From Sumerlaeia bacterium (lineage in GTDB: Bacteria; Sumerlaeota; Sumerlaeia; SLMS01; JAHLLQ01), in NCBI GenBank assembly GCA_040219255.1, contig JAVJSW010000001.1, positions 37,250-101,249 on the forward strand: DNA of 64,000 nucleotides, given 5' to 3'. Below, piece after piece: positions 5,778-36,258 of this stretch (position 1 is its first letter; each line of letters opens with the position of its first letter). Below the pieces are notes generated by a model. That model made no database searches. It was not told the origin of the DNA and saw only the letters and a list, made by a program, of their open reading frames with translations. Both the position numbers and the translations under genes were made by a program.

Positions 5778-6092
5778 GGCGGAGGCCTTTTATTCAGAGG
5801 TGGCTTTTTGAGGAAATCCGTGAGGAAGCATAAGCGTTAAACGCTGGAAGGCCACGTCTCATTGCATTTCTAGAAAAAAATTCTTGGCCACGCGAGGGGT
5901 TTGACGGAGGTGGTGGGTAATTTTTTACAGGGGTGGGGAGGAAAAATCCAGGGGCAACCGAGAGGCGTAATCCGCCCTGGAACCATACTCCACGGACCCC
6001 TCCAGAATTCGTGGCGGAGACACATTTGTCTTGTCAGGAGCGGATCGTGAGGGAGGTTTAGCACATCTCAAGATCCAACTATTTTCGGACAA

Positions 6093-7880: not shown

Positions 7881-8040
7881 ATCGGATCGCGTCCAATGTC
7901 CGAACATTTTTGATGCCTCGCGAGGGCGCTGCTTGCGCCGCGGGGGCGAGGAGGCGTAAGTGGCTGACTCTCTCGCTGCGGCTTGCTCCTGGGGGCATGC
8001 GCGCGGCGTTGTACCTGTGACTTAGAAGGAACCTCTCTCC

Positions 8041-8988: not shown

Positions 8989-9112
8989 GGCGACTCTTCC
9001 GCAAAGAATCACCACGGAGACGCGGAGGCACGGAGAAGCTTCCCGCAAGAGAGGTGGCGCAAGACCGCTTCCGCTGTGTTCAAGGATTGCCTTGCCGGGG
9101 CGCCTTCTCGGC

Positions 9113-9721
9113 CTATGGCGTTGCGGCGGCGAGGGCGGAGTCGAGATCGGGATACGGAGCCAGGACCTCGCCGCTGGCGAAGGTGATGCGTTCGACTTCG
9201 CAACAGACCGTGAATTCGTCTGGGTTCAGCCGGGTGAAGTCTTCGAATGGAATGGGGTCTTGCAGTCCGCTGTAGGGAAACGAGAAGTGGATCGGTTCTC
9301 CCACCGGAAAAGGCCGCAGGACTTCGTGGTAAGCAAGCGGGCGCCCGGTGAAATCGAACACCATCGTGGGGCTGTTCGGATCGGATGAACTCAGAAGGAA
9401 CCGGCCGCTGATTTCCCGAATGGGTTCCTTGCTCCCATTTCTCAATTCCACTGTGATGTAAAGATTGTCGCCCGGGGGATTGAGTCCCCGGAGTTGGGTC
9501 ATTTCTTCAACTGCCGTAACGCGGGCGCTGACCAGCGCGGCGAGGAACGCGCGTCGCCGGGCGTTGATCTTCTCGAGGGAAGGGACAGCGGCTTGCGAGG
9601 CGGGGGCTTCGCCTACGGCGGTAGGAGCGGGTGGAGGGCTCTGCTTTGCGAGCACAATAAAAACCACGGATGCACCGAGGGCAGTAGACACGGCGAAAAG
9701 AGCGGCAAGACGTCGTTTCAT
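9113..9721 (-). CDS. Hypothetical exported protein
   Basis: 202-aa ORF with N-terminal signal/anchor (MKRRLAALFAVSTALGASVVFIVLA); no recognisable domain. Confidence 0.5.
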   Translation of the reverse strand: MKRRLAALFAVSTALGASVVFIVLAKQSPPPAPTAVGEAPASQAAVPSLEKINARRRAFLAALVSARVTAVEEMTQLRGLNPPGDNLYITVELRNGSKEPIREISGRFLLSSSDPNSPTMVFDFTGRPLAYHEVLRPFPVGEPIHFSFPYSGLQDPIPFEDFTRLNPDEFTVCCEVERITFASGEVLAPYPDLDSALAAATP

Positions 9722-9917
9722 GGTTGGCCCTCCCGTAGATGAGCAGGAGAATGGAGGGTGAACCAGTGGTGCTGGGCCGTCAATCCGATCCGGGCTGACG
9801 CGGAAGGCGGATCGGTGGCGGGCATTTTCCGCGTGACCCTGCCGCCGGGCGCGTGACAGGACTTCGGCGCATTTTCTTGGCGCCCGGCCCGAACCGAGGG
9901 CTGGCGGGGAGTTTTGG

Positions 9918-19794: not shown

Positions 19795-20811
19795 TTGCCG
19801 CCTTCAGCCCATTCCCCCCACGCTTTCAATTTGTTGGCTTCTATCGAAGAGGCTGACGTATTTGAGGTGACGCAGAGGTTTTCCGTGCCCGAACCGAACC
19901 CGGACGATACCGGGCCGTTCCAGCAAAACCTGATCGACGAAGATCTGGAGGCGCTCGATGAGGGCGCCCTGCGATCCCGGTTGCGCGAAGTGCAGCGTCA
20001 GCTCGAGGCCGCCCACAGCCAGGAAAGCGAACTGCAACGGCGCCTGAAAGACGTCCTGAGCGCCAGCCAGCGCCAGCTCGGCGAGATCGCCCGCGTCCAC
20101 TCCCGCTTTCTCCCCAACCGCTTTCCCATTCTCGGAGGCCTCGGCTTCGCCGCCAATTGCCGCCCCTGCGCCGATGTGGGCGGCGATTTCTACGATGTCT
20201 TCGAATTGCGCGATGGCCGCGTCGCTTTCTGCATGGCCGACGTCTCTGGCCACGGCGCCATGGCCGCCATCAGCATGGCCACCACCCGCGCCCTGCTGCG
20301 AACCGCTCTGATCGAAGCGGAACCGGTCGATCAGCCCTCCGACGTCCTCGCCCGCCTGTCCTATTGGTTTGGCCCGCAGCTCGACGATGAGCAGTTCGTC
20401 ACCATGTGGCTGGGCATTTATGACCCGCCGACGTGCCTGCTCTCCTACGCCAGCGCCGCTCATCCCTCAGCCATTCTCTGGCGCAAAGAAAAAGACGACC
20501 CGGAATACATCCCCGTCGAGCCCACCGTGCCCTTGGGCATCAGCGGCATCGTGCCGCCCCCAGCCGAAGACGGCATGCTCAAGCTCAAGCCCGGCGACCG
20601 CGTCCTGCTCTACACCGACGGATGGACCGAAACGCCGTCGCGCACAGGCGAGGTCCTGGACGGCGAACGCTTCCTGGAGTTCTTCGCCAACACCCAAGGC
20701 CAGATGCTGGCTCACGTGCCGCTCATGATGTTCATGGATTTCGAGCGCCACGCCGTCGGCACCCGCATCCGCGACGATTTGAGTCTGCTGGTGATGGATC
20801 GGGTCCAGTGA
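19795..20811 (+). CDS. PP2C-type (SpoIIE/RsbU family) serine phosphatase
   Basis: 338 aa; coiled-coil N-terminus then SpoIIE domain (GGDFYDVF...CMADVSGHG...LLYTDG). Confidence 0.8.
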   Translation: MPPSAHSPHAFNLLASIEEADVFEVTQRFSVPEPNPDDTGPFQQNLIDEDLEALDEGALRSRLREVQRQLEAAHSQESELQRRLKDVLSASQRQLGEIARVHSRFLPNRFPILGGLGFAANCRPCADVGGDFYDVFELRDGRVAFCMADVSGHGAMAAISMATTRALLRTALIEAEPVDQPSDVLARLSYWFGPQLDDEQFVTMWLGIYDPPTCLLSYASAAHPSAILWRKEKDDPEYIPVEPTVPLGISGIVPPPAEDGMLKLKPGDRVLLYTDGWTETPSRTGEVLDGERFLEFFANTQGQMLAHVPLMMFMDFERHAVGTRIRDDLSLLVMDRVQ

Positions 20812-21820: not shown

Positions 21821-23992
21821 GTGCCAGTTGACGAACGCGACCGGGAGACCGTTACTACAGTCCTGAATGGCGTTCGGAGGCCTCCCGCAATTTTCCCTCG
21901 TTCTCTGTCTCTTCTTCACTTACGGAAATTCTGCCTCCTGACTGCGACCGCTCTCCTGCCGGCTGCGGCGGCGTGGCCGGGCGAGGGTCTCACGGCCCAG
22001 GCGCAATGGACCGGCGCGACCAGCGGCCTGCAGCTCGGCATGGCCTTGGCCGGCGTCGGCGATTTCAACGGCGACGGCCTGATGGATTTCGCCGCCGGGG
22101 CGCCCGGCTTCGACGCCGATACGGGGGCTGCGGGTCTGATCCTCGGCGGCACCAGTTCTCTTCCGAACCCCATCGGGCCGGATACGCTGACCGGCGCCAA
22201 CGGCTTTTGGGCCCGCGCCAGCGACCCCCGCGAGCGGGCCGGAACCGACGTGGCCGCCGCCGGTGACGTCAACGGCGACGGCTTCGCCGATTTGCTCATC
22301 GGATCGGCCTACGCCCGGGGCTTCCGGGGCGCCGCTTACCTGATCTTCGGCAGCGCCGCCGCCTTTCCCCGCGCCTTCGAACTCGACCTCATCGGCGCAC
22401 GCCAGGGCACCGCCGAAATCACCCTCGGCACAGTCATGCCGGGCGATACGCTGAGCGACCGCATGGGCACCGCCGTGGCGGGAATCGGCGACTTCAACGG
22501 CGATGGCTACGGCGATTTCGCCATCACGGCGGCACTGGCACAGGTGGGGGACGAGATTTTCGCCGGCCGGACCTTCGTGCTCTTCGGCCGCGAGAACTTC
22601 ACCGGTCAACTCTCGCCCTTCGACTTGCTCCCCGCCCGTGGCGGCGACGGGTCCGAAGGCTTCGTCCTCAATGGCGCCTTGTCTTACGATCAAGCCGGGC
22701 AAGCCATCGCCGGTCTTGGCGATATCAACGGCGATGGCTTCGCTGATTTCGCCGTGGGGGCCCCCTATACCGACGCCACCGATCTGGGCACGGAAGGCAA
22801 GGTGTTCGTCCTATTCGGCCGGCCAAGCGTCCTGATGCCCGAGTCCACCCTCGGCGCCCTCTCCCCCGCCGAAGGCTTTGTCGTCGCCAGTTCCATCCCC
22901 GAAGACCGCATCGGGTTCGCCGTCGCCGCTGCTGGCGACGTCAACGGCGATGGGCTCGAAGATTTCCTGATCGGCGCCCCGCGCGCCGACGGACGAGACG
23001 GCGCCCTGGTGGCCGCCGGAAAGGTCTACATCGTCTTTGGCCGCAGCGTCTTTCCCTCGCGCATCGATGCCGCAGCGAGCCTGCTCAGCATGGAGGGCGC
23101 CAGTGATCAGGACTTCTTTGCCCAGGCCGTGACCGGAGTGGGCGATTGGACCGGCGATGGTTTCGCGGATATTCTGATCGGCGCGCCCCGCGTGGACTCG
23201 CCAGATCGCCTGCTGCTGGAATTGGGGCAGACCGCCCTCATCCCTGGCGCCGCTTCGACCGGTGCTATTGGGCCAATCGCGTCCACCCTGACCGGTACCG
23301 CCGAGCGCAGTCTCCTGGGACAGAGCCTCGCCCTGATCGGCGATCACGATGGCGACGGCCGCTTCGCTTTCCTGGCCGGAGCCCCCACCTCCCCAGGCCA
23401 GAACGCTTTGCCCCAGGCGGGCGCCGTTATCGTCGTTAGCGAACCCGCAGGCCTCGCGGCCGACGGCCAACGCGTGCTCTCGCCCGCAAACGCCGCGTTC
23501 CTGCCGGTGGGTTTTGCTGGCGGGGCCAGCGCCATCGCACCCCGCACCGCTCTCCACGCCCGCGCCATCGGAGGAACGACGCCGGTAACCCTCAACGCCC
23601 GCCGCGAAGCCCAAGCCCCACGGAACCTGCCCGATGCGACGCCGGTGCGGTGGCGCCTGGAAGCAAGCGATCCGGCGCGGCGTCTGGAAATCCGCGTGGC
23701 GTTGACCGCCGCCGAAGTCGCCGGACTCCTGGAGTCGCGGCTGGCCCTCTTCTCGGCACCCGCCGAGGACGGGCCCTGGACGCCAGTCGCCGGAGCGGTT
23801 CGCGTCGGCGGCCGCCTGCAATGGCAGGGAACCGTGACCGCGACCCCCGTCTGGCTCGCTATCGCAGAGCGCCAAAGCGCCGTCGTGCGACAGGAAATCG
23901 TCCGCTTTCTCCTCGGCATTCAGGCCTACCGCGACGCCCTCGACGTAAACCGAGATGGCGTCGTGGACAGCGCCGACATGACCGGTTTGTAG
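21821..23992 (+). CDS. Secreted FG-GAP repeat (integrin-alpha-like beta-propeller) protein
   Basis: Signal peptide (LLTATALLPAAAAWP); at least 7 canonical FG-GAP repeats (GDFNGDGLMDFAAGAP, GDVNGDGFADLLIGSA, GDINGDGFADFAVGAP ...); C-terminal dockerin-like DVNRDGVVDSADM. True start probably a GTG/TTG near 21900. Confidence 0.75.
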   Translation: MPVDERDRETVTTVLNGVRRPPAIFPRSLSLLHLRKFCLLTATALLPAAAAWPGEGLTAQAQWTGATSGLQLGMALAGVGDFNGDGLMDFAAGAPGFDADTGAAGLILGGTSSLPNPIGPDTLTGANGFWARASDPRERAGTDVAAAGDVNGDGFADLLIGSAYARGFRGAAYLIFGSAAAFPRAFELDLIGARQGTAEITLGTVMPGDTLSDRMGTAVAGIGDFNGDGYGDFAITAALAQVGDEIFAGRTFVLFGRENFTGQLSPFDLLPARGGDGSEGFVLNGALSYDQAGQAIAGLGDINGDGFADFAVGAPYTDATDLGTEGKVFVLFGRPSVLMPESTLGALSPAEGFVVASSIPEDRIGFAVAAAGDVNGDGLEDFLIGAPRADGRDGALVAAGKVYIVFGRSVFPSRIDAAASLLSMEGASDQDFFAQAVTGVGDWTGDGFADILIGAPRVDSPDRLLLELGQTALIPGAASTGAIGPIASTLTGTAERSLLGQSLALIGDHDGDGRFAFLAGAPTSPGQNALPQAGAVIVVSEPAGLAADGQRVLSPANAAFLPVGFAGGASAIAPRTALHARAIGGTTPVTLNARREAQAPRNLPDATPVRWRLEASDPARRLEIRVALTAAEVAGLLESRLALFSAPAEDGPWTPVAGAVRVGGRLQWQGTVTATPVWLAIAERQSAVVRQEIVRFLLGIQAYRDALDVNRDGVVDSADMTGL

Positions 23993-24086: not shown

Positions 24087-24662
24087 ATGGCCACCAAGAA
24101 AAAAACCGACACCAAATCCGCCGCGGCCCCGACCAAGCCCCGCCGCGCCCAGACCGATATGGAAGAAAATCCGATCGGATTGCCGCAGGATTACTGCGAA
24201 GACATGGTGCCCGAGTTGGACAAGCTCCTCTCGACCGAATACACCCTACTGCACCAGTACCACAAGCATCACTGGCTGGTGAACGGCCCGCAGTTCCGCG
24301 ATCTGCATCTCTTCTACCAGGAGGCCTACGAGGCGCTCTTCGCAAAGGTCGACGACATCGCCGAACGCGTGACACACCTAGGCGGGTTCCCGACCTGCGA
24401 ACCGGCCAACATGCAGAAGAAGTCGATCATCGACCACGAACCGGAAGGTCTCTTCTCGGTCCGCGACATGCTGGCTCGCGACAAGGCGGCGGAAATCACC
24501 GTCGCGCAGAATCTGCGCAAAATGATCGCCTTCGCCCGCGACCACCAGGACTTTGGCACGGTCCGCCTGCTGGAGAAAGTTCTCCTCGGCGGCGAAGACC
24601 GCGCCCATCACATCGATCACTTCCTGGAGGAAGACTCGCTGGAAGAAGGCCGCGAGGACTGA
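24087..24662 (+). CDS. dps: Dps (DNA-binding ferritin-like starvation protein)
   Basis: 191 aa; Lys-rich N-tail, ferroxidase-centre residues (HW..GP.F..LH..F.E...D..AER). Confidence 0.85.
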   Translation: MATKKKTDTKSAAAPTKPRRAQTDMEENPIGLPQDYCEDMVPELDKLLSTEYTLLHQYHKHHWLVNGPQFRDLHLFYQEAYEALFAKVDDIAERVTHLGGFPTCEPANMQKKSIIDHEPEGLFSVRDMLARDKAAEITVAQNLRKMIAFARDHQDFGTVRLLEKVLLGGEDRAHHIDHFLEEDSLEEGRED

Positions 24663-24705
24663 CTCGCGGGGTTCGCCCCCCACAGGTTTCCCATAAAAAT
24701 GGCGC

Positions 24706-24739
24706 GCCCGGTCAGATTGTCTGGCCGGGCGTTTTTCTA
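24706..24739 (+). terminator. Intrinsic terminator downstream of dps (possibly bidirectional with convergent giant ATPase gene)
   Basis: cgcccggtcag-attgt-ctggccgggcg hairpin followed by TTTTTCT. Confidence 0.6.
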
Positions 24740-24757: not shown

Positions 24758-27700
24758 TCAGCCCCCGCCCCCACCGACTTGCGCCAGCAAGCCGGTCGCC
24801 TTGCGGTGCGCGCCGTCCAACGCCGCGATGATCGCCGACAGCTCATTGCGCGTCAGGCTGGCGCCCTCGCGGCTTTCCACCAGCAGAAGCGTATCCTCGC
24901 GCAGGGCGAAGCTGACCGGTAGAATCTCGGAGTTGAAATCGAGCAGCACCCGGTACAAATCCGGCCCGGCGGCGCCGTTCAGCGCCCCCACCTCCGCCTC
25001 CAGATAGAACCGCTCGCCCTCGATCCGTAGCCGCACCGGCAGGCCGCCGTCGCGTTCCAGCAGGTACTCGGTGCGAGAGACTTCGCGGACGATAAACCCA
25101 CTGCCTTCAAGGAACCGGCGCAGCGAACCGGCCTGGTTGAATTCGCCTTCCTTGGGCGACCAGACGAATTTGTTCTCGCTCGGCGCTGGCGGCGTGGGAG
25201 CGGACGCCGGGGCGCGCTCGGGAATCACGGCCATGGCCAGGCTGGTCAGGATCTCGTGCAATTGGGCCAGGCTCTCCGGCGGGAACGTCGCCCGCAGATC
25301 GCCGGAAATCGGCGCGGGCGCGGCGGCCTGCGGCGCTTCAGAGCGCGTGGAGGCCGCCTCGGCGAGCGCCGCCTTCAAATCCGCCAGTCCCGTCTGCAAT
25401 CCCGCCAGGGCCTCCGGCGCGAATTCCGCCCGCACCGGCCGGTCCGATTCGGACTGCGCCTGGCGCATCGCGTCCAGGGCCAACTTCAATTCCGCCAGCG
25501 CTTCGCGCACCGGACCGAGGCTTTCGCCCTCGAGCGTCGCCCGCACCTCCTGCGGCCCCGTCGGGCGGCTTTGCTCGACCCGGTCCGCCAACTGCGTCAG
25601 GCCCCCCGCGATGCCCGCGTTCAGGCCGCCAACGCCCTCCGACAAATCGTTCAGCACGCCCATGATCTGGGTCATGCTGTCGGCTTGGCCGCCGCCGATG
25701 CCGCGGAACTTCTGGTTCCGGCGGAAGGTGTCGCAGATTTCCGCCCAGCGCTCGCGATCGCCCGGCTGTTCAAAGCCAAACGTCAGCTTGAAATTCAGCA
25801 GGTTCGCCTCGGCGCCGGTTGTGAGCGTCTGCGCCTCCTGATCGTAGTGCGAGAAAATCAGCGTCTTCAGCTCCGCATCGTTCATCACCGGCAGCACCTT
25901 CTCCGCCAGCTTGTTCATGTTGCGATAGGAGCCCTGGAGCTTGAACGGCGGCTGGGTGCGGAATTCGTCGGCTTGGGCGGCGCTCTCGATGTACATTTCG
26001 TTGATGCGCAGAATGACGTCGCGCACCGCCATCAGCTTCTTCAGCACGTCCACGTATTCGCTGATTTCGGTCGCGCTGTGGTTCGCTTCGAAATCCACGC
26101 CTTCGCGCGAACCGGTCTCGGCGATGCGCAGAATACCGTGCAGATCCTTGTGGCTCTTGGCCGACAACCGCGCCAGCGAGGCGTTCGAGGTCATGGCGTT
26201 TTCGATGTAGGACAGTTCGAACGCCGCCCGCGTGTCGCCAATGATGTCGCCCAGATTATACGTGTCGGCGCGGTTGGCCAGCATGTCGGGAATCTGGAAC
26301 TTTTCGCCGCTCTCGGTGTAGGGATTGCCGGCCATGATGACGCAGACTTTCCGCCCGCGCAGGTCATAGGTTTTCGTGCGGCCCTTGTACACGCCCTCGA
26401 TCTTGCGCTGGGCGTCGCAGAGGCTGATGAATTTCTGCAAGAATTCCGGGTTACAGTGCTGAATATCGTCGAGATAGATCATCACGTTGTCGCCCATTTC
26501 GAGCGACAGGTTCAGCTTCTCCAACTCCTGACGCGCTGTGGCGTTGGGGGCCTCCACCGGGTCCAGGCTGGTGACGTGGTGGCCGATGGCTGGACCATTG
26601 ATTTTCATGAAGATAATGCCGAGCCGGTTCGCGATGTACTCCATCAGCGTCGTCTTACCATAGCCCGGCGGCGAAATCAGCAGCAGCATGCCCATCCGAT
26701 CGGTGCGAGTATTCGCACCCACCGTCCCCATTTGTTTCGCCAGGTTGTCGCCGATCAGCGGCAGATAAACCTGATCCAGCAGCTTGTTGCGCACGAAGCT
26801 GGACAAGATGCGGGGCTTGAATTCTTCGAGCCGCAGTTGCTCGCGGAAGCGCTCGGCGCTGCGTTTCTTCGCCTCCTGGAACGTGCGGAACATCGGCCCC
26901 ACGGTGCGGTCGTAGTGGGCAAGGCGGCTCATGAATTCCGGATAGCTGAGCCCATAGCGGCCCTCCGCGATGCGGCTGTGCGAACCCAGCATGCCCTCTA
27001 ATTCCCGCGTGATCGAAGCCGACAGCACGCGCCGCTTCTCGAACGACCCGGTGAAGCAAAGCACCGCCGCTTCATCCAGGTACGGCCGCAGCGTTTCGGC
27101 CTCCTTCGCCTTCTCCAGATACCCCGCCAGCCATGCCCGCACCAGCGCGAAAGTCCCCACCGGATCGGCCTCCGCACCGGCCAACGTTTCCTCGAAGGCT
27201 TTGGCGCCATTGGCCTTTTTCAGGTGTGCGGTGAAGCCCTCGAAGAGCTTGGCGGCCTCCGGCGCGATCACGAAATCTTCGCCTGCCGTCAGCTCGAAAT
27301 ACAGATACTCAGCGCCTTCGCGGGCGGCCTCGGCGGGAAAAAGGGCCGTCGTCTCGGCGAACGCCACGAGCTGTTCCTCGAGCGGCGCCAGGAACCGCCC
27401 GCGGTCCAGCCGGTGCGGCAGCACCCGCAGAATCGCCCGCACACCCCGGAGTTGCTGGGCGAGGCGCCCCTTCAGTTCCCCATCGCCAAAGCGCCGGAAC
27501 CACATCTGCGCGCACGCCCGCGAAGCCGTCGGGTAGCGCAGCAGGCCAACCGCCTGATTCATCTGCGCCAGCGCCCGCACGATCTTCGCCGCGTCACCGT
27601 CGTGGACGCCCTTGACGTAGCCCTCGGCGTAGCGCGGGCTCGCGAACTTCTGCACCGCGTCCAGCAGCGCCGCGTCCTCCATCACCGCCAATTCGGCCAC

Positions 27701-30508
27701 CGGCGGTTGCGCGCCCGATTCGCTGGCCTTCAGGAACTGATAAGCCAGATATTCGGCGCGATAGACATTATTGTTTTCGGACACGATTTCCTGCGCCCAA
27801 ACCGCCCGGGTCTCGTCCAATTCCGGATCGGACGCCATTTCATAGAAGTTCGTTCCGGTGATGTGGTAATAGATCTTGCCATCGCGAATGACCGTCGAAA
27901 GATCCAAAGGTTGCGTGTTGACGCTAAATTTCTGTTTTCCGAACTGGATGACATCGCCACCGTCGGCGTACAATTCCAGTTTGTCCTTCAGTTGACGAAG
28001 GGCGTCTTCCTTGATGGTTTTCAACCGGCTTTGAATTTCGTCGGATTTGACCGAGTCGCCCAGGTCCCGCAGTTTCTCGATCGTGTCGCGCACTTTATCA
28101 ATCATCAAATCGGTGGCGAAGTAACTGTTGATTTCGTCCACCGACTTCATGCCGCGAGCGCGATTTTCGACGCCCTTCAGGATGCGGTCCGCCGCCCCCT
28201 GGAGCGTGACCGCCCGCTTCTGGCGGGCTTCCATCAGCGACGTCTTCTTGCTCTCGAACGCCTGATAAATCTCTTCCCGCTTGGTGGAAAGCTCCGTCAC
28301 GAATTCATCGTAATCGGCAAACTTGCCTTCCAGCTCCTCGACCTGGACGAGTAACTTCGTCAGGTACTCGTCGCACTTCTCCGGTGTGTCGCAAAGGTCC
28401 ATGAAGTTCACGACGCTCTGGCTGACGAGCTTGATTTGCGATCCGAACTCCGCGACCGCTTCCGCGCTGCCCAATTCCTTTTTCTTGTTTGTCAAGGCGG
28501 CGCGGACCTGATTGACCTTCTGGAAAATCGCGGAAATCGCATCGATGATTTGGGTCGTCTTCGTCGAATCGTCGATTTTCAAATTCCCGACGATTTCGAT
28601 CAACAATTCGAGCTGCCCGCTGATTTCGTGAATCGCCTCTTCATGCTCGCGAGCTTCCGTGACTTTCGTCAATTTCGGAATCGCCGCCTTCTCCTCCGCG
28701 ACTTTCTCTTCGTAGATATCGAGGGCGTTTGGCTGGAGCAAGAACTCCACCGTTTTCTCTGAGACCCCGTCGCTCTGCTCGGCGACCTGCTTCTCCAGCG
28801 CTTCCACGTGCGGCAAATCCACATAGCGGAGGTCCTTGAGCGAAATCACCTCGCCGCGCAGCAAACGCAATTCATTCAGCCCCGCCACATAGCCATCCAC
28901 CGCGGGCCATTGCCGGCCGCGCAGGCTCCCAAGAATCTCTTCCGCTTTCTTTGTCGTTTCGCGGACTTTCGTTTCCGTCTGCTTGCGAAGCGCCGTGACT
29001 TTTTCGAACTCGTCGATGGCCGTGCCGGCGCTCCTGCGGATTTGCTCCAGCACTTCCTTTAAATTGAAGAGCTCGCCCTCGCCCACCCAAAAATACGAGT
29101 CCGTGATATCCGTGGTGTTCTTCACCAAGTCCAGATACAGACTCTCGTAAGGCGTTTCGCGGCGGCACAGCTTGATGACTTCCCAGCATTCCGCCATCGC
29201 TCGCACAACTTCTTTGTTTCCAATTTTGTAGAGGCGCGAATCGCCCTTTTGAGGAAGCTCGAAATTCGGCCCCACATACGGGGTCTGCCACACCTGCACG
29301 GGATGGTGCTTTTGCGGCTCGATCTGATCGCCGAAGTACACCATTTCTCCGTTTTCGAAAATCGAATAACCCTGGCCGACAATCGGTGTCGCGACCCGCT
29401 GCTCGATCATGTTGTACGACAACAGAATATACACGCCGCTCGCCCTGTTGTGAAACACGAACAGGTGATCTTCGCCGTTGGCCGATGGCACCCGCCGCTC
29501 GAACAGCATTTCCTTCAGACCATGCTCGAACTGCTTGTGCTCGCCATTGACCAGGTAATAACCACTGCTAAAGATAATTCCGTGATCGTCCGGCAGAAGA
29601 ACGCAAGAATGCTGGATCGCATCCACGCGCCGCGCTTCCTTGATCTTGTCGTTATAGATGATATACCGATGATCTTTCTCCTGGTAAGGCTTGATCTTCA
29701 GCAATATCAGCGGCCCCACCACGGCGTAGGAAATCTCGGCGTCGTCCAGCACCTGGTCGGCGTTTTCCACCGGTTCCCGATAAATACCCTCACCCGACTC
29801 CGTATTGTCTTCCACCTTGATGGTCAAATCCCCGCCAACGGTTTCCACGAAAACTCGGTCTTCGATGGAAATGTGCGGGTGTTTCCCTTCGCGGTGCAGG
29901 TCGCGGTGCGTACGCTTCCAGGTGAACTCGTGCTGCGGCGGGTACTTGAACTCGTGATCGCTGCGGTTGTCCAGGTACGTCAACCCGTCCCCCTGAATCG
30001 CCCACTTGAAGGTCTTGATGTCCGTCGGCCGCTTGCCCACCTGGAAAACCATGAACAGGTGCGGCCCGATAATGGCGAATCGCGAGAACGTCGTTTCCTT
30101 GTAATACTTGTAGAGGTTGTTGAAATCCTCCTCGAACCGCTTGTCATCGATCAGGCTCAAATCCGCCGTGTGAAACTGGCGCTCCCGGTATTCGTAAACG
30201 GCGAAAACGTCCTTGAGCTCCGTCGTGCTCTTCAGACCGAAATGGACATTGTAGCCAAAGATAAACCGGGTTCCCACCGGCACCATATCGCGGGCGATGC
30301 AGTTATGCTCCGTCGTGATCCGCGCCCGGTCCAGGACCTGCAAATCGATCGAGCCAAAGGTGTCCTTCCGCACCGCGTTCAGCTTGTTGACGCGGTCCTG
30401 CAAATCCTTCGCCTGCGCCGCGAGACGATTGCGGATGATCTCGTAGGTGCCGCCTTCGAGCTGTGCTTGATCCTGTTGCGCCTGCGATTCTTTTTCAACG
30501 TCCGCCAT
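24758..30508 (-). CDS. Giant (1916 aa) uncharacterised protein: aromatic-rich N-domain + about 700-aa coiled coil + single AAA_5 (dynein/MoxR/McrB-class) ATPase module + C-terminal YbjN-like domain
   Basis: Walker A LLLISPPGYGKTTLMEYIANRLG, Walker B VMIYLDDIQHCNPEFLQKF, sensor-1-like KVCVIMAGNPYT; heptad-rich region about 500-1200; C-terminus FVWSPKEGEFNQAGSLRRFLEGSGFIV...RFYLEAEV...LLDFNSEI matches YbjN/T3SS-chaperone-like fold; RBS GGGGAAAGAGAGA before ATG; GC lower than neighbouring genes. Confidence 0.8.
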   Translation of the reverse strand: MADVEKESQAQQDQAQLEGGTYEIIRNRLAAQAKDLQDRVNKLNAVRKDTFGSIDLQVLDRARITTEHNCIARDMVPVGTRFIFGYNVHFGLKSTTELKDVFAVYEYRERQFHTADLSLIDDKRFEEDFNNLYKYYKETTFSRFAIIGPHLFMVFQVGKRPTDIKTFKWAIQGDGLTYLDNRSDHEFKYPPQHEFTWKRTHRDLHREGKHPHISIEDRVFVETVGGDLTIKVEDNTESGEGIYREPVENADQVLDDAEISYAVVGPLILLKIKPYQEKDHRYIIYNDKIKEARRVDAIQHSCVLLPDDHGIIFSSGYYLVNGEHKQFEHGLKEMLFERRVPSANGEDHLFVFHNRASGVYILLSYNMIEQRVATPIVGQGYSIFENGEMVYFGDQIEPQKHHPVQVWQTPYVGPNFELPQKGDSRLYKIGNKEVVRAMAECWEVIKLCRRETPYESLYLDLVKNTTDITDSYFWVGEGELFNLKEVLEQIRRSAGTAIDEFEKVTALRKQTETKVRETTKKAEEILGSLRGRQWPAVDGYVAGLNELRLLRGEVISLKDLRYVDLPHVEALEKQVAEQSDGVSEKTVEFLLQPNALDIYEEKVAEEKAAIPKLTKVTEAREHEEAIHEISGQLELLIEIVGNLKIDDSTKTTQIIDAISAIFQKVNQVRAALTNKKKELGSAEAVAEFGSQIKLVSQSVVNFMDLCDTPEKCDEYLTKLLVQVEELEGKFADYDEFVTELSTKREEIYQAFESKKTSLMEARQKRAVTLQGAADRILKGVENRARGMKSVDEINSYFATDLMIDKVRDTIEKLRDLGDSVKSDEIQSRLKTIKEDALRQLKDKLELYADGGDVIQFGKQKFSVNTQPLDLSTVIRDGKIYYHITGTNFYEMASDPELDETRAVWAQEIVSENNNVYRAEYLAYQFLKASESGAQPPVAELAVMEDAALLDAVQKFASPRYAEGYVKGVHDGDAAKIVRALAQMNQAVGLLRYPTASRACAQMWFRRFGDGELKGRLAQQLRGVRAILRVLPHRLDRGRFLAPLEEQLVAFAETTALFPAEAAREGAEYLYFELTAGEDFVIAPEAAKLFEGFTAHLKKANGAKAFEETLAGAEADPVGTFALVRAWLAGYLEKAKEAETLRPYLDEAAVLCFTGSFEKRRVLSASITRELEGMLGSHSRIAEGRYGLSYPEFMSRLAHYDRTVGPMFRTFQEAKKRSAERFREQLRLEEFKPRILSSFVRNKLLDQVYLPLIGDNLAKQMGTVGANTRTDRMGMLLLISPPGYGKTTLMEYIANRLGIIFMKINGPAIGHHVTSLDPVEAPNATARQELEKLNLSLEMGDNVMIYLDDIQHCNPEFLQKFISLCDAQRKIEGVYKGRTKTYDLRGRKVCVIMAGNPYTESGEKFQIPDMLANRADTYNLGDIIGDTRAAFELSYIENAMTSNASLARLSAKSHKDLHGILRIAETGSREGVDFEANHSATEISEYVDVLKKLMAVRDVILRINEMYIESAAQADEFRTQPPFKLQGSYRNMNKLAEKVLPVMNDAELKTLIFSHYDQEAQTLTTGAEANLLNFKLTFGFEQPGDRERWAEICDTFRRNQKFRGIGGGQADSMTQIMGVLNDLSEGVGGLNAGIAGGLTQLADRVEQSRPTGPQEVRATLEGESLGPVREALAELKLALDAMRQAQSESDRPVRAEFAPEALAGLQTGLADLKAALAEAASTRSEAPQAAAPAPISGDLRATFPPESLAQLHEILTSLAMAVIPERAPASAPTPPAPSENKFVWSPKEGEFNQAGSLRRFLEGSGFIVREVSRTEYLLERDGGLPVRLRIEGERFYLEAEVGALNGAAGPDLYRVLLDFNSEILPVSFALREDTLLLVESREGASLTRNELSAIIAALDGAHRKATGLLAQVGGGGG

Positions 30509-30900
30509 GGTTGTCTCTCTTTCCCCATTCTGGCCTCGGTGGCCAATTCGTCATTTTTTTTGGCGAGATAAAGATTGTGTAAGGACAAGGCCGCTGTGGT
30601 TTCTTTCCACATAATGATCCAGCGCGAGTAGCAAATTCTCTCGCTTGCCAGATAGAGGTACAAAAGCAATCCGGCTATAGTCCCCATCATATGGTATTCT
30701 GGATAAACAAGTACCCAAAGAAATCCAACTGTCACTGCGATAGGAACCACAAAAGCCCATTTGTAACGCTTCCAGTTCTTCCGCGTTTGAAAACAGCTCT
30801 TGATAAAAGGAATCTGCTCCTCGGTGACACCTAGCCTGGGATTCACAACCAATGCGAGTTCCTGACTGCTTGGTTCTTCGAGTGTGCTGTTGGGTGTCAC
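30379..30900 (-). CDS. Small hypothetical 2-TM membrane protein encoded in a low-GC (about 43%) patch; 3' end overlaps start of giant ATPase gene
   Basis: 173-aa ORF; TM segments WAFVVPIAVTVGFLWVLVY and GTIAGLLLYLYLASERI; Arg-rich tail is read-through into 24758..30508 in another frame; could instead be non-coding spacer. Confidence 0.3.
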   Translation of the reverse strand: MTPNSTLEEPSSQELALVVNPRLGVTEEQIPFIKSCFQTRKNWKRYKWAFVVPIAVTVGFLWVLVYPEYHMMGTIAGLLLYLYLASERICYSRWIIMWKETTAALSLHNLYLAKKNDELATEARMGKERQPWRTLKKNRRRNRIKHSSKAAPTRSSAIVSRRRRRICRTASTS

Positions 30901-30943
30901 CGAGTACGATTTCCTTTCGGGTCCGGCTGGGCGGTTTGGGGGA

Positions 30944-33058
30944 TTACCCCTTCTTCACCAGCCCCGGCTCGCCCAGCAACTGGGCCGCCGGTTTGTCGCT
31001 CAGGCCCGCCTGCTTCGCGCCGTCCAGCAGCCCTTGCAGCATCGCCTTCGTTTCCTTCTCCTTCGTCATGCCGATCAGGCGCAGCAGCAGCGCCGACGTC
31101 GTCAGGTTCTTCAGATCCGCCGTCGTCACGCCGAAGGTATCGACCAGCTCCTTGACCTTCACGCGCAGGGCTTCGCCCGCGTCGCTGGTGCCGTTGCCGT
31201 TGGGGATGAAAGCATCCCGCAGGCCCGACGCCACGTCGCTGTTCTGCACGAACCGGTCGACCGACTTGCCGTAGGAAATCGAGTTCACGATACGATCGAA
31301 GAACATCGAGTCGCCGCCGACGATGTCGATCTTGGCGCTCTTCAGGCCTTCGCGGATCACGCTGGCCTGGGCTTCGGCGATGTCGCGCTGGATCGTGATC
31401 TGGGCCAACTCGATTTCCTTGTCCTTGGCCAGGCGCAGCTTGAACTCCTCGTGCTCGCGGCCCACCGCGTCCAGCTTCTTCATCGCTTCGGCCTTTTGCG
31501 TGATGCCTTCCGCTTCCGCGTTCATCTTCTGGCGCATGACTTCCGCTTCCGCTTCGCCCTGCTTCTGGGTCGCTTCGGCTTTGGCGGCCAAGCCCATCGC
31601 TTCCGCTTCCGCCTTCTTCTGGATGACTTCCGCCTGGGCCGCGCCTTCCTTGGCCAGGGCCGACGCGCGGGCCTCCATCACGCGGACTTCCGACATGCCG
31701 TGCACGGCCTCTTCCTCGGCTTTCGCGGCGGCCAGGGTCTTCATCGCTTCGGCGCGTTGATCGGCGGCCAGCTTGTCCGCCTCCGCTTCCACCTGCACCT
31801 GCTTGGCGCGGTGGTCGGCGGCCTGGCGTTCGGCCTCGGCGGCTCTCACCCGCTTGATCATTTCCTCCTCGGCTTTGCGCTGCGCCTCCACCAGGGCCAC
31901 ATGCTTCTCGCGCTCGGCGCCGGCGTGGGCCTGCGTGTCCTTGATGCGCTCTTGCTCCTCGACCACCTGGCGCTCCACGACAACCCGTTCGCGGATGACG
32001 TCCTGGATGTTCTTGCGCTGCTCTTCGACGCTCTTCTCTTTTTCGATCTGCGCCAAGGTCACGATGCGTTCGCGCTCGTTTTGCTCCAACTGGCGAGCCT
32101 GCTCCACCCGTTCGCCTTCCACAGCGTCGGTGCGTTCCTTCGCCCGCCGGGCCACGATGACCTGGCGTTCGCGGTTTTGCTCCGCCACTTCCAGCTCTTC
32201 CGCCGTCGCGATGCGCGCCTGCTCGGACTTCTGCCATTCCTGAGCCTTCACGATGGCCGCTTCCGCTTCCTCGCGGCTTGTCAGGGCGGCGATCTCCTTC
32301 TTCTGCCGCTGCTCCGCTTCCGTGCGCTGCCGGTCCAGCTCCAGGATCGCCTCGCGCGCTTCCACGTCCTGCTGCTTGATCGTCTTCTCTTTATCGCGCT
32401 CGATCTTGTTCGCCAGCATCTGCTGCTTCGATGTCAGATCGGTGATCTTCTTGATACCCTCGGCGTCCAGGATGTTGTCCGGGTTCAACGTCTCCTTGGG
32501 CGTCTGCTCCAGGTAATCGATCGCCGCGTCGTCCAGGATGTAACCGTTCAGGTCCGTGCCGATGATCTGCAGGATCTCGTTCTTGAACTTCTCGCGGCTC
32601 GAGTACAACTCGGTGAAGTCAAAGCCCTTACCGACCGTCTTCAGCGCCTCCGAGAACTTCGCGTCGAAGAACTCCACCAGCGCCGCCGGGTCGCTCGCCC
32701 GCTCGCAGCCAATGCTTTGCGCCACTTTCAAAACGTCCTGCTCCGTCTTGTTCACGCGGACAAAGAAGGCCACCTTGATATCGGCGCGCATGTTGTCCTT
32801 ACAAACCAGGCCATCCTTGCCCGTGCGCCAGATTTCGATGCGCTTGACCGAGACGTCGATTTCTTCCAGGCGGTTGAACACTGGGTAATAGAAGCTCGCC
32901 GAGAAGACGACTTTCGATCCGCTGCGGCTGGTGATGATCAGGGCTTTGCCTTGTTTCGCTTTGACCAGGAAGAATCGGGCCGCGGCCACATAGCCGACAA
33001 TCAGTATCAGGCCGACAAGAAAGGCGATACCGAGAATGAGATAAACGAGGTCCATCAT
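30944..33058 (-). CDS. Flotillin-like SPFH/band-7 protein (YqiK/FloT type) with long Ala/Glu/Gln-rich coiled-coil region
   Basis: 704 aa; N-terminal TM, SPFH domain (VFNRLEEIDVSVKRIEI...DNMRADIKVAFFVRV), extensive EA-repeat coiled coil, flotillin C-terminus. Confidence 0.9.
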   Translation of the reverse strand: MMDLVYLILGIAFLVGLILIVGYVAAARFFLVKAKQGKALIITSRSGSKVVFSASFYYPVFNRLEEIDVSVKRIEIWRTGKDGLVCKDNMRADIKVAFFVRVNKTEQDVLKVAQSIGCERASDPAALVEFFDAKFSEALKTVGKGFDFTELYSSREKFKNEILQIIGTDLNGYILDDAAIDYLEQTPKETLNPDNILDAEGIKKITDLTSKQQMLANKIERDKEKTIKQQDVEAREAILELDRQRTEAEQRQKKEIAALTSREEAEAAIVKAQEWQKSEQARIATAEELEVAEQNRERQVIVARRAKERTDAVEGERVEQARQLEQNERERIVTLAQIEKEKSVEEQRKNIQDVIRERVVVERQVVEEQERIKDTQAHAGAEREKHVALVEAQRKAEEEMIKRVRAAEAERQAADHRAKQVQVEAEADKLAADQRAEAMKTLAAAKAEEEAVHGMSEVRVMEARASALAKEGAAQAEVIQKKAEAEAMGLAAKAEATQKQGEAEAEVMRQKMNAEAEGITQKAEAMKKLDAVGREHEEFKLRLAKDKEIELAQITIQRDIAEAQASVIREGLKSAKIDIVGGDSMFFDRIVNSISYGKSVDRFVQNSDVASGLRDAFIPNGNGTSDAGEALRVKVKELVDTFGVTTADLKNLTTSALLLRLIGMTKEKETKAMLQGLLDGAKQAGLSDKPAAQLLGEPGLVKKG

Positions 33059-33064
33059 GGGACG

Positions 33065-33754
33065 TTAGGGCTCCTTGGCGATAAGTTCGGAAGAGGGTAA
33101 GGGTTCGATTTGGTAAATGCCCCGGCTTTCGTCTTCGTTGACGATCACAGCCTGTTGCCGGGCGGCGAGGGTGATGCCTTCGCGGGTTCGCACGTTCAGA
33201 CGCAGCGGCGCGCCCGTGATTTCGATTTCCGCCTGGCCGATACGGATCGCGTCCACGGCGGTCAGCGTCGTGCAGATACGCCCCGTCAGATCGCGAATCG
33301 TTATCTCGTTCGACTCCCGGGCGGCTTTCGCCAACGGCGCCGTGATCGCCTTCGTGGCGAAAATCGCCAGGATGTAGGCCACGAACAAAATCACCAGGCC
33401 AATACCCGGATCGTGGTTCGGATTCAGGACGATCGTCCCGATCATCGTGATGGTCCACATCACCAGGATCAAAATCCCGATCACGATCATCAACGGAACC
33501 TGATGGGCGTTGATGAAGGAAAGGAAACCCGACAGAATCCCGCCGCCACCGCTCCCCCCCTCCGCATCCAGGTCCGCATCCCCGTCCACGCCCGCATCCA
33601 GGTCCAGGTCGGCGTCGATTTCCGCCTCCATATCCAGCGAATCGCCACCCACGAATCCCAGAATCACGAACAGCCAGTAGGCCACGACCAAGAGCAACGG
33701 CACCGTCACGATCAGGTTGATCGGCGCAAAGACAACATTCAGCAACTCAGCCAT
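33065..33754 (-). CDS. YqiJ/NfeD-like membrane protein (flotillin-associated, C-terminal OB-fold)
   Basis: About 230 aa from Met MAELLNVV; 3-4 TM helices, acidic loop (DADLDLDAGVDGDADLD), C-terminal beta-barrel (ITIRDLTGRICTT...IEITGAPLRLNV); 6-nt gap to flotillin start, as in yqiJK/nfeD-floA operons. Confidence 0.7.
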   Translation of the reverse strand: MAELLNVVFAPINLIVTVPLLLVVAYWLFVILGFVGGDSLDMEAEIDADLDLDAGVDGDADLDAEGGSGGGGILSGFLSFINAHQVPLMIVIGILILVMWTITMIGTIVLNPNHDPGIGLVILFVAYILAIFATKAITAPLAKAARESNEITIRDLTGRICTTLTAVDAIRIGQAEIEITGAPLRLNVRTREGITLAARQQAVIVNEDESRGIYQIEPLPSSELIAKEP

Positions 33755-34066
33755 CCATTTCTCGCTCCTTTCGGCACTTCGCGTTCGCATCCCTTACTTC
33801 ACCACCGAGAGCCCTATTCACCGCCCCGGCGGAAAAATCGGCGGCGCCCATTGATTGCGCCCCTCGATCCGATTTTCGCCCCTGTTTTTTCGCCTCTATT
33901 CGTCTCGCCCTTTCCGCCAGTGGTCAAGCTCAGCCGACACCCGCCGAAGCCTTTTCTTTCGCCCTTTCCCCCTTGACAGATCGGCCCGCCTTGCCTTCCC
34001 CTTTTCCCTAGCTCCTGGCTCCGCTCCAACTCGCGGCCCGCCAGGCATAAGGGAAAGACTCCGCAG

Positions 34067-34171
34067 ATGTTTTTCGCGACGCTCCAGCTTTTGGTTTTCG
34101 CCACTGCCCACAAGGCAGAGCGGTGGATCCTGGGCCGTCGCCTCGCCGTGGTCGTAGTACGAACGCTCTGA
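34067..34171 (+). CDS. Candidate ilv leader peptide (34 aa, MFFATLQLLVFATAHKAERWILGRRLAVVVVRTL)
   Basis: Short ORF with RBS AAGGGAAAG; four consecutive Val codons (GTG GTC GTA GTA) just before the stop; stop codon embedded in 5' arm of a strong hairpin; followed by terminator and ilvB. Confidence 0.5.
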   Translation: MFFATLQLLVFATAHKAERWILGRRLAVVVVRTL

Positions 34172-34263
34172 GACGGGGCCGCCCGCCGGCCCGCCCCTCG
34201 GGCCATGCGTCTCAGAGCCGAAAACACCAGCCGCTGACGTCCGTCGGCGGCCTTTTTGTTGTC
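34165..34263 (+). promoter_or_regulatory. Transcription attenuator upstream of ilvB: 11-bp-stem hairpin (gctctgagacg...cgtctcagagc) followed by intrinsic terminator (gccgctgac-gtcc-gtcggcggc + CTTTTTGTTGTC)
   Basis: Perfect 11-bp inverted repeat 34165-34175/34208-34218; second hairpin 34230-34251 followed by U-tract 34252-34263; located about 75 nt upstream of ilvB start. Confidence 0.55.
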
Positions 34264-34335
34264 ACTGCGTCTCCAAAAGACACCACGGCTTTGCGAAACC
34301 CAACCCACACCGCCAAATCAAGAGAACCTCTCGCT

Positions 34336-36258
34336 ATGATTCACGAAGAAATGTCCCCCGCCACCGAAGACGCCGTGGCTGAAGAATACGCCACCAACGG
34401 CCAGGACGTCGCGCTCCGCGCCCCCCACGCCCTCCGCGGACAGCAAATGACCGGCGCCGACACCATCATCCAGGTCCTCGCCGACGAAGGCGTCGATGTC
34501 ATCTTCGGCTACAGCGGCGGCGCCATCCTGCCCACCTACGACGCCATTTTCCGCTACAACAAGAACCATCAGGAAGACCTCGAAAACCAAATCCGCCTCG
34601 TCGTCCCCGCCAACGAGCAGGGCGCCGGGTTCATGGCCGCCGGCTATGCCCGCGCCACCGGCAAAGTCGGCGTCTTCCTCGTCACCAGCGGCCCCGGCGC
34701 CACCAACTGCGTCACCCCCATCCGCGACTGCATGGCCGACAGCGTCCCCACCATCCTGATCTGCGGCCAGGTCCCCCGCCCCGCCATCGGCACCGACGCC
34801 TTCCAGGAAGCCCCCATCTTCAACATCATGAGCGCCTGCGCCAAGCACACCTTCCTGGTGACCAAACCCGAGGAACTGGAAGCCACCTTCCGCACCGCCT
34901 TTGAAATCGCCCGCAGCGGCCGCCCCGGCCCCGTCGTCATCGACGTCCCCAAGGACGTCCAGAACGCCCTGATGGAATACCAGGGCGACGGCGTGCTGGA
35001 ACTGCGCGGCTTCCAGAAGCGCATGGAAAACCTGCGCGCCGCCAAAGTCTCCAAGAAAAACCAGGCGTCCTTCTTCCAGATGCTCGGCGAATCCAAACGC
35101 CCCCTCATCTACGCCGGCGGCGGCGTCATCAACAGCGCCGGAGCCGCCGAAGAACTGCGCGCCTTCGCCAAGCGCTTCCAAATCCCAGTGGTGACCACCC
35201 TGATGGGCATCGGCGCCTACGACACCACCGACTCCCTCAGCCTCCACATGCTCGGCATGCACGGCGCCGCCTACGCCAACTACGCCGTCGAAGACTGCGA
35301 CATGCTCATCGCCGTCGGCAGCCGCTTCGACGACCGCGTCGCCGGCAAGGTTCTCGAGTTCGCCCCCCTGGCCCGCCACATCGCCCACCTCGACATCGAC
35401 GCCGCCGAAATCGGCAAGGTCAAGAACATCCACTGGAGCCATGTCGGCGACGCCGGTGCCGGCCTCAAGATGCTCCGCGAATACGGCGAGCAGATCGACT
35501 TCAAGCGCGACTTCTCCGCCTGGGTCCAGCACGCCGCCGAACTCCGCGCGAATCACGCCTTCAACTTCGACCGCGAATCCGCCATGCTCCAGCCCTACGA
35601 AGTCCTCGAAGCCCTCAACCGCATCACCAAAGGCGAAGCCATCGTCTCCACCGGCGTCGGCCAGCACCAGATGTGGGCCGCCCAGTACATCGACTACAAG
35701 CACCCCCGCTCCTGGCTCACCAGCGGATCCATGGGCACCATGGGCTTCGGCCTCCCCGCCGCCATCGGCGCCAAAATCGCACGCCCCGACAAAATCGTCA
35801 TCAACGTCGACGGCGACGGATCCATCCGTATGAACATCGGCGAACTTGAAACCGCCACCACCTACGGCGCCAACATCAAGGTCCTTCTCCTCAACAACGA
35901 GGGCGACGGCATGGTGCGCCAGTGGCAAAAACTCTTCTTCGACGAACGCTTCTCCGGCACCGACAAGACCATGCACACCAAGGACTTCGTCAAAGCCGCC
36001 GAAGCCGACGGCTACCGCTTCGCCAAACGCCTCGAACTCTACGACCGCGAAAACCTCGAGCAAGTCCTCCAGGAATTCGTCGCCTTCGACGAAGGCCCCG
36101 CCTTCCTCGAAGTCCGCATCGACCCCGACGCCTGCGTCTTTCCCATGGTCGGCCCCGGCAAAGGCTACAAAGACATGATCGTCGGCCCCCACATCACCCC
36201 CCGCGACGCCGCCGCCGCCCAAGAAGCCAAGGGCGCCGAAGCCGCCGACCTCTTCTAA
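34336..36258 (+). CDS. ilvB: Acetolactate synthase (acetohydroxyacid synthase) large catalytic subunit, biosynthetic type
   Basis: TPP enzyme blocks (GYSGGAILP, GPGATN, ThDP motif GDGSIRMNIGELETA...NNEGDGMVRQWQ); start assigned to ATG 34336 (track ORF extends upstream to 34123 in the same frame). Confidence 0.9.
   Translation: MIHEEMSPATEDAVAEEYATNGQDVALRAPHALRGQQMTGADTIIQVLADEGVDVIFGYSGGAILPTYDAIFRYNKNHQEDLENQIRLVVPANEQGAGFMAAGYARATGKVGVFLVTSGPGATNCVTPIRDCMADSVPTILICGQVPRPAIGTDAFQEAPIFNIMSACAKHTFLVTKPEELEATFRTAFEIARSGRPGPVVIDVPKDVQNALMEYQGDGVLELRGFQKRMENLRAAKVSKKNQASFFQMLGESKRPLIYAGGGVINSAGAAEELRAFAKRFQIPVVTTLMGIGAYDTTDSLSLHMLGMHGAAYANYAVEDCDMLIAVGSRFDDRVAGKVLEFAPLARHIAHLDIDAAEIGKVKNIHWSHVGDAGAGLKMLREYGEQIDFKRDFSAWVQHAAELRANHAFNFDRESAMLQPYEVLEALNRITKGEAIVSTGVGQHQMWAAQYIDYKHPRSWLTSGSMGTMGFGLPAAIGAKIARPDKIVINVDGDGSIRMNIGELETATTYGANIKVLLLNNEGDGMVRQWQKLFFDERFSGTDKTMHTKDFVKAAEADGYRFAKRLELYDRENLEQVLQEFVAFDEGPAFLEVRIDPDACVFPMVGPGKGYKDMIVGPHITPRDAAAAQEAKGAEAADLF

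Follow-up and report, generated by a model that had tools for sequence, protein, structure and literature searches.

The window analysed here, a 64-kb stretch of DNA from a Sumerlaeia bacterium, carries on its minus strand a putative operon of three genes. In the direction of transcription these encode a YqiJ/NfeD-like membrane protein (33065-33754), a YqiK-type flotillin of 704 aa (30944-33058) and a protein of 1916 aa, referred to below as the giant (24758-30508), to which Pfam assigns the families DUF3686, DUF7902 and AAA. The open reading frame (ORF) of the YqiJ-like gene reaches 33790; its orthologues begin at the methionine encoded at 33754. The gap between the YqiJ-like and flotillin genes is 6 nt, and a low-GC spacer of 435 nt (30509-30943) lies between the flotillin and giant genes. 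A preliminary description, made from the sequence alone, had counted four co-oriented genes separated by 6-45-nt spacers or overlaps. All four ORFs exist at the coordinates it gave and three of them are real genes, but the fourth, a 173-aa ORF at 30379-30900, is unsupported (see below); without it the 6-nt junction stands and the flotillin-giant distance becomes 435 nt.

The conservation of this arrangement was examined from both sides. For the forward test, 80 genome loci were retrieved by alignment of the giant, and 65 of them had enough upstream sequence to be scored. A flotillin homologue was located directly 5' to the giant gene and on the same strand in 62 of these 65 loci, which belong to Bacteroidota, Planctomycetota, Verrucomicrobiota, Desulfobacterota, Clostridia, Omnitrophota and Kiritimatiellota. 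For the reverse test, 80 metagenome loci were retrieved by alignment of the flotillin; 64 had enough sequence, and 63 of these encoded the N-terminal domain of the giant 3' to this flotillin subfamily on the same strand. Whichever of these two genes is taken as the starting point, the linkage is nearly obligate. A YqiJ-like gene was found 5' to the flotillin in 56 of 61 genome loci, with a median gap of ~16 nt and frequent 4-nt overlaps. The order of a ~215-270-aa protein, flotillin and giant is also kept in Halopseudomonas, Streptomyces, Myxococcus and Vibrio, whose giants have 30-42% identity in the N-terminal domain. Altogether the triad was found in at least nine phyla (Bacteroidota, Planctomycetota, Verrucomicrobiota, Desulfobacterota, Clostridia, Actinobacteria, Myxococcota, Gammaproteobacteria and Sumerlaeota). 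The identities of flotillin and giant to their window counterparts are correlated (Spearman 0.43, n=127), as would be expected of any vertically co-inherited pair. The preliminary description had suggested such a survey of gene neighbourhoods, and its view of the giant as a dedicated partner of the NfeD/YqiJ-flotillin pair, rather than a chance neighbour, is borne out by both sets of counts and by the distant lineages.

The YqiJ-like protein has three transmembrane or hydrophobic segments. Taken alone, the window protein gave a weak match to Pfam YqiJ_N (E 0.014); this family was matched by 13 of 28 orthologues. A profile of the family aligned with Escherichia coli YqiJ over nearly the full length, including the C-terminal part of YqiJ (hhalign probability 96.8%, E 3e-10). 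The NfeD OB-fold family PF01957 was not matched by the window protein, and by one of the 28 orthologues at E 0.005.

The window flotillin combines an N-terminal membrane anchor, formed by its single transmembrane segment, with an SPFH/Band_7 domain, a Glu/Ala-rich coiled coil and a C-terminal domain. It has 29% identity to E. coli YqiK over 455 aa (E 6e-43). The corresponding profile alignment is highly significant (probability 99.96%, E 6.7e-39) but stops at column 452 of 706, leaving the C-terminal part without a counterpart in YqiK. The globular domain within this part (aa ~560-704) has no Pfam match, and its identity between phyla is 33-53%. In the NCBIfam FloT equivalog model the flotillin scored 15 bits against a cut-off of 700 and is thus not a FloT orthologue. 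As judged from sequence, the flotillin is a dedicated subfamily with its own C-terminal domain, and this domain is a candidate docking site for the giant. It should be noted that the full-length 704-aa protein had no match in Pfam, whereas residues 1-229 scanned alone matched Band_7 at E 5e-12. Band_7 was likewise missed on the full-length flotillins of the closest relatives and of Halopseudomonas, Streptomyces, Myxococcus and Vibrio; the likely cause is that their Glu/Ala-rich coiled coil sets off the HMMER bias filter. As a consequence, neighbourhood tables give '-' for the flotillin and the association is hidden from automatic surveys.

The giant is a soluble, cytoplasmic protein in which no transmembrane or hydrophobic segment was found. 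Its Pfam matches are DUF3686 at aa 35-473 (E 5e-191), DUF7902 at aa 594-678 (E 7e-25) and one ATPase module, the number also given in the preliminary description, at aa 1275-1400, matched by AAA (8e-7), RuvB_N (4e-5) and AAA_5 (5e-5). The RuvB_N match spans the Walker A region only and scores under its cut-off. An identical protein from a Sumerlaeia bacterium metagenome-assembled genome is named 'DNA repair ATPase' by its source, and the description of DUF3686 reads 'ATPase involved in DNA repair'; literature searches on DUF3686, PF12458, DUF7902, or 'DNA repair ATPase' with flotillin found no paper. DUF3686 comprises 749 clusters at 50% identity, and its complete bearers are all 1.6-2.0 kaa long, so the architecture of the giant is fixed. 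Homologues from other phyla are 53-59% identical to the window protein over >1600 aa.

Structures were predicted with AlphaFold2 (AF2) on sub-alignments covering aa 1-900 and aa 861-1916, with a mean predicted local distance difference test score (pLDDT) of 78.9 and 71.0, respectively. In these models a helix (aa 19-51) precedes a beta-rich, propeller-like domain that forms the core of DUF3686 (aa 57-408, 29285-30340). This is followed by long-helix repeats of spectrin-like or coiled-coil type that include DUF7902 (aa 425-846, 27971-29236), a small beta unit (aa 853-891) and an all-helical domain (aa ~915-1225, 26834-27766; pLDDT ~85-93) for which there was no Pfam or PDB sequence match. The stretch of about 700 aa previously described as coiled coil is accordingly modelled as two units, ~420 aa of long-helix repeats and a helical domain of ~310 aa. 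The AAA+ module with its helical lid (aa ~1235-1600, 25709-26806) contains the Walker motifs, and its core is modelled at low confidence. An Ala/Pro/Glu-rich linker (aa ~1601-1780, 25169-25708; pLDDT 30-50), which is not conserved among homologues, leads to a C-terminal CesT/YbjN-fold domain (aa ~1785-1912, 24773-25156) that is a confident alpha/beta structure in the model.

The elements of an AAA+ nucleotide site (Walker A GxxGxGK[ST], Walker B hhhhD[DE], a polar sensor-1 residue and an arginine finger) are all present in the giant, as GYGKT (K1285/T1286), LDD (D1347/D1348), N1395 and R1413, and all are invariant in 14 homologues. On this evidence the ATPase site looks intact. The 5' half of the giant gene (27600-30508) has a GC content of 0.53-0.58, compared with 0.60-0.73 for the 3' half; GC at third codon positions (GC3) is only slightly lower in the 5' half (0.72-0.78 vs 0.82-0.87). 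The difference resides mostly at codon positions 1 and 2 and thus reflects the amino-acid composition of the conserved domains.

When ORFs of the retrieved loci were clustered de novo, three further genes recurred in 17-19 Bacteroidota genome loci. Two lie 5' to the triad on the same strand, a PspA_IM30 gene (E 2.5e-40) and a 131-aa CesT_Tir_1 gene (E 4.6e-54), and the third encodes a divergent regulator with helix-turn-helix and S24-like domains. Both CesT_Tir and PspA were present, always on the same strand, in 30 of the 49 metagenome loci with >3 kb of upstream sequence. The Halopseudomonas locus (L164) has a divergent operon of DUF2170, PspA, K+ channel, DUF2491, DUF350 and DUF1190 genes ~1.3 kb from the triad (coordinates 1-3949 and 5245-13331), with rhomboid and DUF6471 genes in between.

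The preliminary description held that the giant was not part of any described flotillin operon. This does not stand, as the same grouping was reported by Ravi et al. 2024 (mSystems; preprint 2020; PMC11237479), who described an operon composed of a CesT/Tir-PspA dyad followed by YqiJ/YuaF, a Band-7/flotillin protein and a beta-propeller/coiled-coil/AAA+ ATPase. In their supplementary table, Dokdonia donghaensis ANH61663.1 is listed with the same gene order (PMC11237479), and this order was found independently in the Bacteroidota loci here. They also noted abbreviated operons without the dyad, which are more widely distributed (PMC11237479). The window triad has the features of the Ravi operon, namely a YqiJ/YuaF-type protein with three transmembrane segments, a membrane-anchored Band-7 and coiled-coil flotillin and a large AAA+ ATPase encoded 3' to it, with the same order and architectures. 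It differs from the full operon in having no separate CesT/Tir or PspA gene, in the CesT fold fused to its ATPase and in the 435-nt low-GC spacer. Since there is no CesT/Tir-PspA dyad in the window, its operon matches the abbreviated form. The window operon is a member of a class that earlier in silico work had placed in the phage-shock membrane-stress network. To a linkage that Ravi et al. gave without quantification, the present analysis adds the two-way counts, the rejection of the 'DNA repair' name, the fused C-terminal fold, and the finding that CesT/Tir-PspA genes accompany in cis short-tailed ATPases only.

The last two points concern the C-terminus of the giant. A YbjN-like domain had been proposed there in the preliminary description, and at the level of the fold this was confirmed: three helices are predicted to pack on a 5-6-stranded sheet, and the best structural match is the DUF2170 CesT fold (BacA). 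Among 120 close homologues, only three, one of them the window protein, have this CesT-fold domain, which makes the fusion a rare variant. About 40 end soon after the AAA+ lid, those with names being Bacteroidota, and ~58-70 have a tail that ends in a QFxxMxxWxxP-like motif. Tail type and cis genes were compared in the 92 loci where the giant was complete and the upstream sequence long enough. CesT/Tir or PspA was present in cis at 43 of 64 loci with a short-tailed giant and at 0 of 28 with a long-tailed one (Fisher p 1.6e-10, a value that ignores kinship). The distribution fits replacement of a separately encoded adaptor by the tail or fused domain; phylogeny alone could give the same pattern. 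At the level of sequence, the fused domain could be tied only weakly to the stand-alone CesT_Tir_1 family, and this link was set aside; the fold search alone was convincing. Other relatives of the giant (P0346, P0355, P0364, P0368, P0370-P0372, P0374 and P0390) have a PilZ domain (PF07238), and the two of these with taxon names are both Myxococcota. The precomputed Pfam list gives PilZ first, an order that suggests an N-terminal domain, and control of these giants by cyclic di-GMP (c-di-GMP) is possible.

A further instance of the operon class is probably bacABCDEF of Pseudomonas aeruginosa. There BacA is a DUF2170/CesT-fold protein and BacB is PspA (PMC10948618), PA14_16160 is a short NfeD and PA14_16180 a flotillin (PMC13086221), and PA14_16190/PA3728 (BacE) is annotated as 'ATPase involved in DNA repair' or 'ATPase'. 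The gene order is thus BacA (DUF2170), BacB (PspA), BacC (short NfeD), BacD (flotillin PaFlo3) and BacE. Co-transcription of bacA-F was demonstrated by reverse transcription PCR, and the partners are jointly de-repressed in a bacA mutant (PMC10948618). Unlike the window operon, bacABCDEF includes a sixth gene (bacF) as well as a sigma-54 promoter, and its phenotypes in biofilm formation, rhamnolipid production and virulence were studied for bacA and bacB, not bacE. No P. aeruginosa BacE entry was among the representatives or the Vibrio-seeded matches, which returned members from Halopseudomonas and Pseudomonadales.

Several better known systems share parts of this organization. The YqiJ-YqiK pair of E. 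coli and the YuaF-FloT pair of Bacillus subtilis are homologous to the membrane pair of the window, but their operons contain no giant ATPase and the C-terminal domain of the window flotillin does not align with YqiK. In B. subtilis PspA-YdjGHI, an SPFH protein is reported to be needed to bring PspA to the membrane (PMC8581546); SPFH and PspA proteins are encoded together there as well, but the accessory proteins are others and an AAA+ ATPase is absent. According to a 2025 review, an ATPase of the Vps4 type 'appears absent in bacteria' (PMC7619361). In HflK/C-FtsH, Vps4 with ESCRT-III, and PspF with PspA, an AAA+ machine works at a membrane together with an SPFH cage or a polymer of the ESCRT-III family. 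These ATPases resemble the giant in concept, their homology to it being confined to the generic AAA+ fold. FtsH is a membrane-anchored protease, Vps4 carries an MIT domain and PspF activates transcription, all of which set them apart from the giant.

SPFH cages have been solved for HflK/C, QmcA-YbbJ and flotillin-1/2. By analogy to HflK/C-FtsH and ESCRT-III-Vps4, and because PspA and a CesT-fold adaptor recur beside the triad, we assign a probability of roughly 60% to the reading that the locus is an abbreviated membrane-stress operon whose giant spends ATP on building, remodelling or dismantling flotillin and/or PspA assemblies or their clients. The flotillin and YqiJ would form a cage or microdomain of SPFH type at the inner membrane, on its cytoplasmic side. 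The giant would be recruited to this cage through its propeller or helical arms, possibly by the C-terminal domain of the flotillin, and would oligomerise via its AAA+ module. During envelope stress, ATP hydrolysis could then drive the assembly, remodelling or disassembly of flotillin/PspA polymers or client proteins, a role analogous to that of Vps4 on ESCRT-III or of FtsH inside HflK/C. The fused CesT-like domain would serve as a built-in adaptor, which in Bacteroidota and Pseudomonas is encoded by a separate gene.

Several observations weigh against this ATP-driven remodelling. The giant has DD in place of DE in Walker B, its AAA+ core is modelled with a pLDDT of 40-80, and the propeller assignment is weak (target-normalised TM-score ~0.33 in Foldseek). 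The fused CesT-like domain compares poorly with the stand-alone CesT_Tir_1 family (hhalign probability 10.7%), and neither a PspA nor a CesT gene is located anywhere in the 64-kb window. The 435-nt flotillin-giant spacer could hold a promoter of its own. The identification of BacE as the orthologue of the giant is based on annotation and position, not on sequence comparison, and no experimental study of the giant was found in the literature. Finally, ~5% of giants (loci L012, L016 and L037) have no adjacent flotillin. The surroundings of these three look mobile, with NACHT-like/tetratricopeptide repeat (TPR) proteins, a DNA methyltransferase or unrelated membrane proteins, and no YqiJ; these giants may have been relocated, or may work in trans.

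A more specific form of the remodelling idea is that the giant is the missing bacterial counterpart of Vps4, docked on the flotillin cage by the subfamily-specific C-terminal domain, with the CesT-fold adaptor loading PspA/ESCRT-III-type polymers or trapped membrane proteins. We consider this clearly less likely than not. The adaptor would be fused in Sumerlaeia, stand-alone in Bacteroidota and Pseudomonas, and perhaps replaced elsewhere by the QFxxMxxWxxP tail. If so, the window fusion would be a 'Rosetta stone' for a chaperone and an ATPase that act as one unit.

It is unlikely that the giant is instead a signalling scaffold or nucleotide-dependent switch that links downstream responses to the state of the flotillin platform or to second messengers. 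The extensive surfaces of its propeller and helical repeats are suited to the binding of partners, the DD in Walker B is seen in some slow or switch-like NTPases, and BacA, the CesT-like partner, behaves as a negative regulator of the P. aeruginosa operon (PMC10948618). Fusions to an N-terminal c-di-GMP-binding PilZ domain occur in ~10 of 120 relatives of the Vibrio member, among the matches listed, but these would equally fit a regulated remodeller. Moreover, no kinase, DNA-binding, cyclase or other output domain was found in the giant, and the strict invariance of its nucleotide-site residues fits a working ATPase.

The preliminary description had also raised the idea of a defence-type machine. 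A role in anti-phage defence or abortive infection, with the flotillin platform sensing membrane damage by phage and the giant acting as effector or switch, would account for the up-regulation of PA3728-PA3732 in all phage-infected P. aeruginosa samples (PMC12041424), but such induction is expected from any phage-shock-type membrane stress response. Some loci have suggestive neighbours: L012 is near NACHT-like/TPR and toxin-like genes, and Vibrio L167 adjoins genes for HipA, RNA ligase and TelA. The window neighbours dps and ilvB, however, are housekeeping genes. Against PADLOC-DB v2 the giant had weak matches to mad8 and IetA, confined to the P-loop region at E ~1e-3; the other three proteins matched nothing, and no system model was matched. 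A conservation of 53-59% identity between phyla over >1600 aa is, in addition, unusually high for a defence system, and the family comprises just 749 clusters at 50% identity. We therefore consider a defence function quite improbable. That the giant is a DNA repair ATPase, next to the flotillin by accident, can be dismissed as very improbable indeed, since the names in the source databases ('DNA repair ATPase', 'ATPase involved in DNA repair') are all that speaks for it, while Pfam, NCBIfam and PDB searches revealed no SMC/RecN-type ABC head, nuclease, helicase or DNA-binding domain, the sole ATPase is the AAA+ module with its sub-cut-off RuvB_N match to the Walker A region, no paper tying DUF3686 to DNA repair was found, and chance adjacency is ruled out by the two-way linkage to a membrane scaffold.

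In the maintenance of bacterial membranes, flotillin/SPFH scaffolds and PspA/ESCRT-III polymers have a central part. The operon bears on what powers the dynamics of bacterial flotillin and PspA. An ATPase of 1600-1900 residues that is kept by a dedicated flotillin, often together with PspA, is an obvious candidate for the missing energy-consuming component. Because the giant occurs in tractable Pseudomonas, Streptomyces, Myxococcus, Vibrio and Flavobacteriia, this candidate role is directly testable.

The spacer between the flotillin and giant genes was analysed separately. Its GC content is 0.49-0.51, compared with 0.63 for the window, and it resembles either what is left of a foreign DNA insertion or an extended regulatory region. 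Its one ORF, of 173 aa (30379-30900), had been taken for a small membrane protein with two transmembrane segments and a fourth component of the system. We reject this assignment. No homologue, not even its own copy, was found among 5.8e9 proteins, from which it appears that the source gene calls omit the ORF, and tblastn found nothing in 160 related loci. The ORF is absent from the two closest relatives, in which the flotillin-giant gaps are 98 and 6 nt. Its GC content at the three codon positions is 0.48/0.40/0.53, whereas GC3 of the neighbouring genes is 0.72-0.87, and 130 nt of it would lie within the conserved start of the giant gene. An RNA element in the spacer or in the upstream region was also considered and rejected, the Rfam matches being at chance level only.

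In other genomes the flotillin-giant spacer varies from -16 to 2379 nt and often contains unrelated small genes, so that it appears to be an insertion-tolerant site, a hot spot in those genomes. The inserts include PDDEXK_3 (by Pfam) and, as judged by eye, a ParE-like toxin, DUF559-like proteins, an IS200-like transposase and assorted lipoproteins. Examples from loci L003-L075 are L033 9522-9941, L069 9625-9963, L024 9524-9946 and L049 6802-7251. The YqiJ-flotillin junction, in contrast, is tight, often with a 4-nt overlap.

The limits of the operon agree with those originally proposed, a Dps gene and hairpin on one side and a divergent ilvB-like gene on the other. The dps (ferritin) gene (24087-24662, plus strand) is convergent with the giant gene and is followed by a GC-rich 13-bp hairpin (24704-24732) that lies between the two gene ends. 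This hairpin is strong, has a T-run and is probably a terminator common to both genes. Clustering of the neighbouring ORFs in the 80 genome loci found no conserved genes 3' to the giant. At the other end, the region between the YqiJ-like gene and the plus-strand ilvB-like gene for a thiamine pyrophosphate (TPP) enzyme (33755-34337) is the presumed promoter region of the operon. A consensus scan detected no sigma-70-like site in it, and over the scans as a whole promoters and terminators were found at chance level (2 vs 2.1 expected and 15 vs 12.6, respectively), which makes such scans uninformative for this phylum; a division of the operon by internal promoters or terminators was set aside on the same grounds. 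An ORF of 164 aa in this region (33814-34308) was considered as an extra upstream gene and is not credible, as its translation is Arg/Gly-rich and belongs to no family. Just 5' to the ilvB-like gene is a terminator-like hairpin of 9 bp followed by CTTTTTG (34230-34251, plus strand), which is compatible with the ilvB leader or attenuator suggested earlier; Rfam gave no known leader near this gene. Beyond dps, and unrelated to the operon, a plus-strand gene (21821-23992) encodes a 723-aa protein with six FG-GAP repeats and a weak C-terminal dockerin-like match. Genes for a SpoIIE-type phosphatase (19795-20811) and a histidine kinase (17893-19665), equally unrelated to the operon, are located near it.

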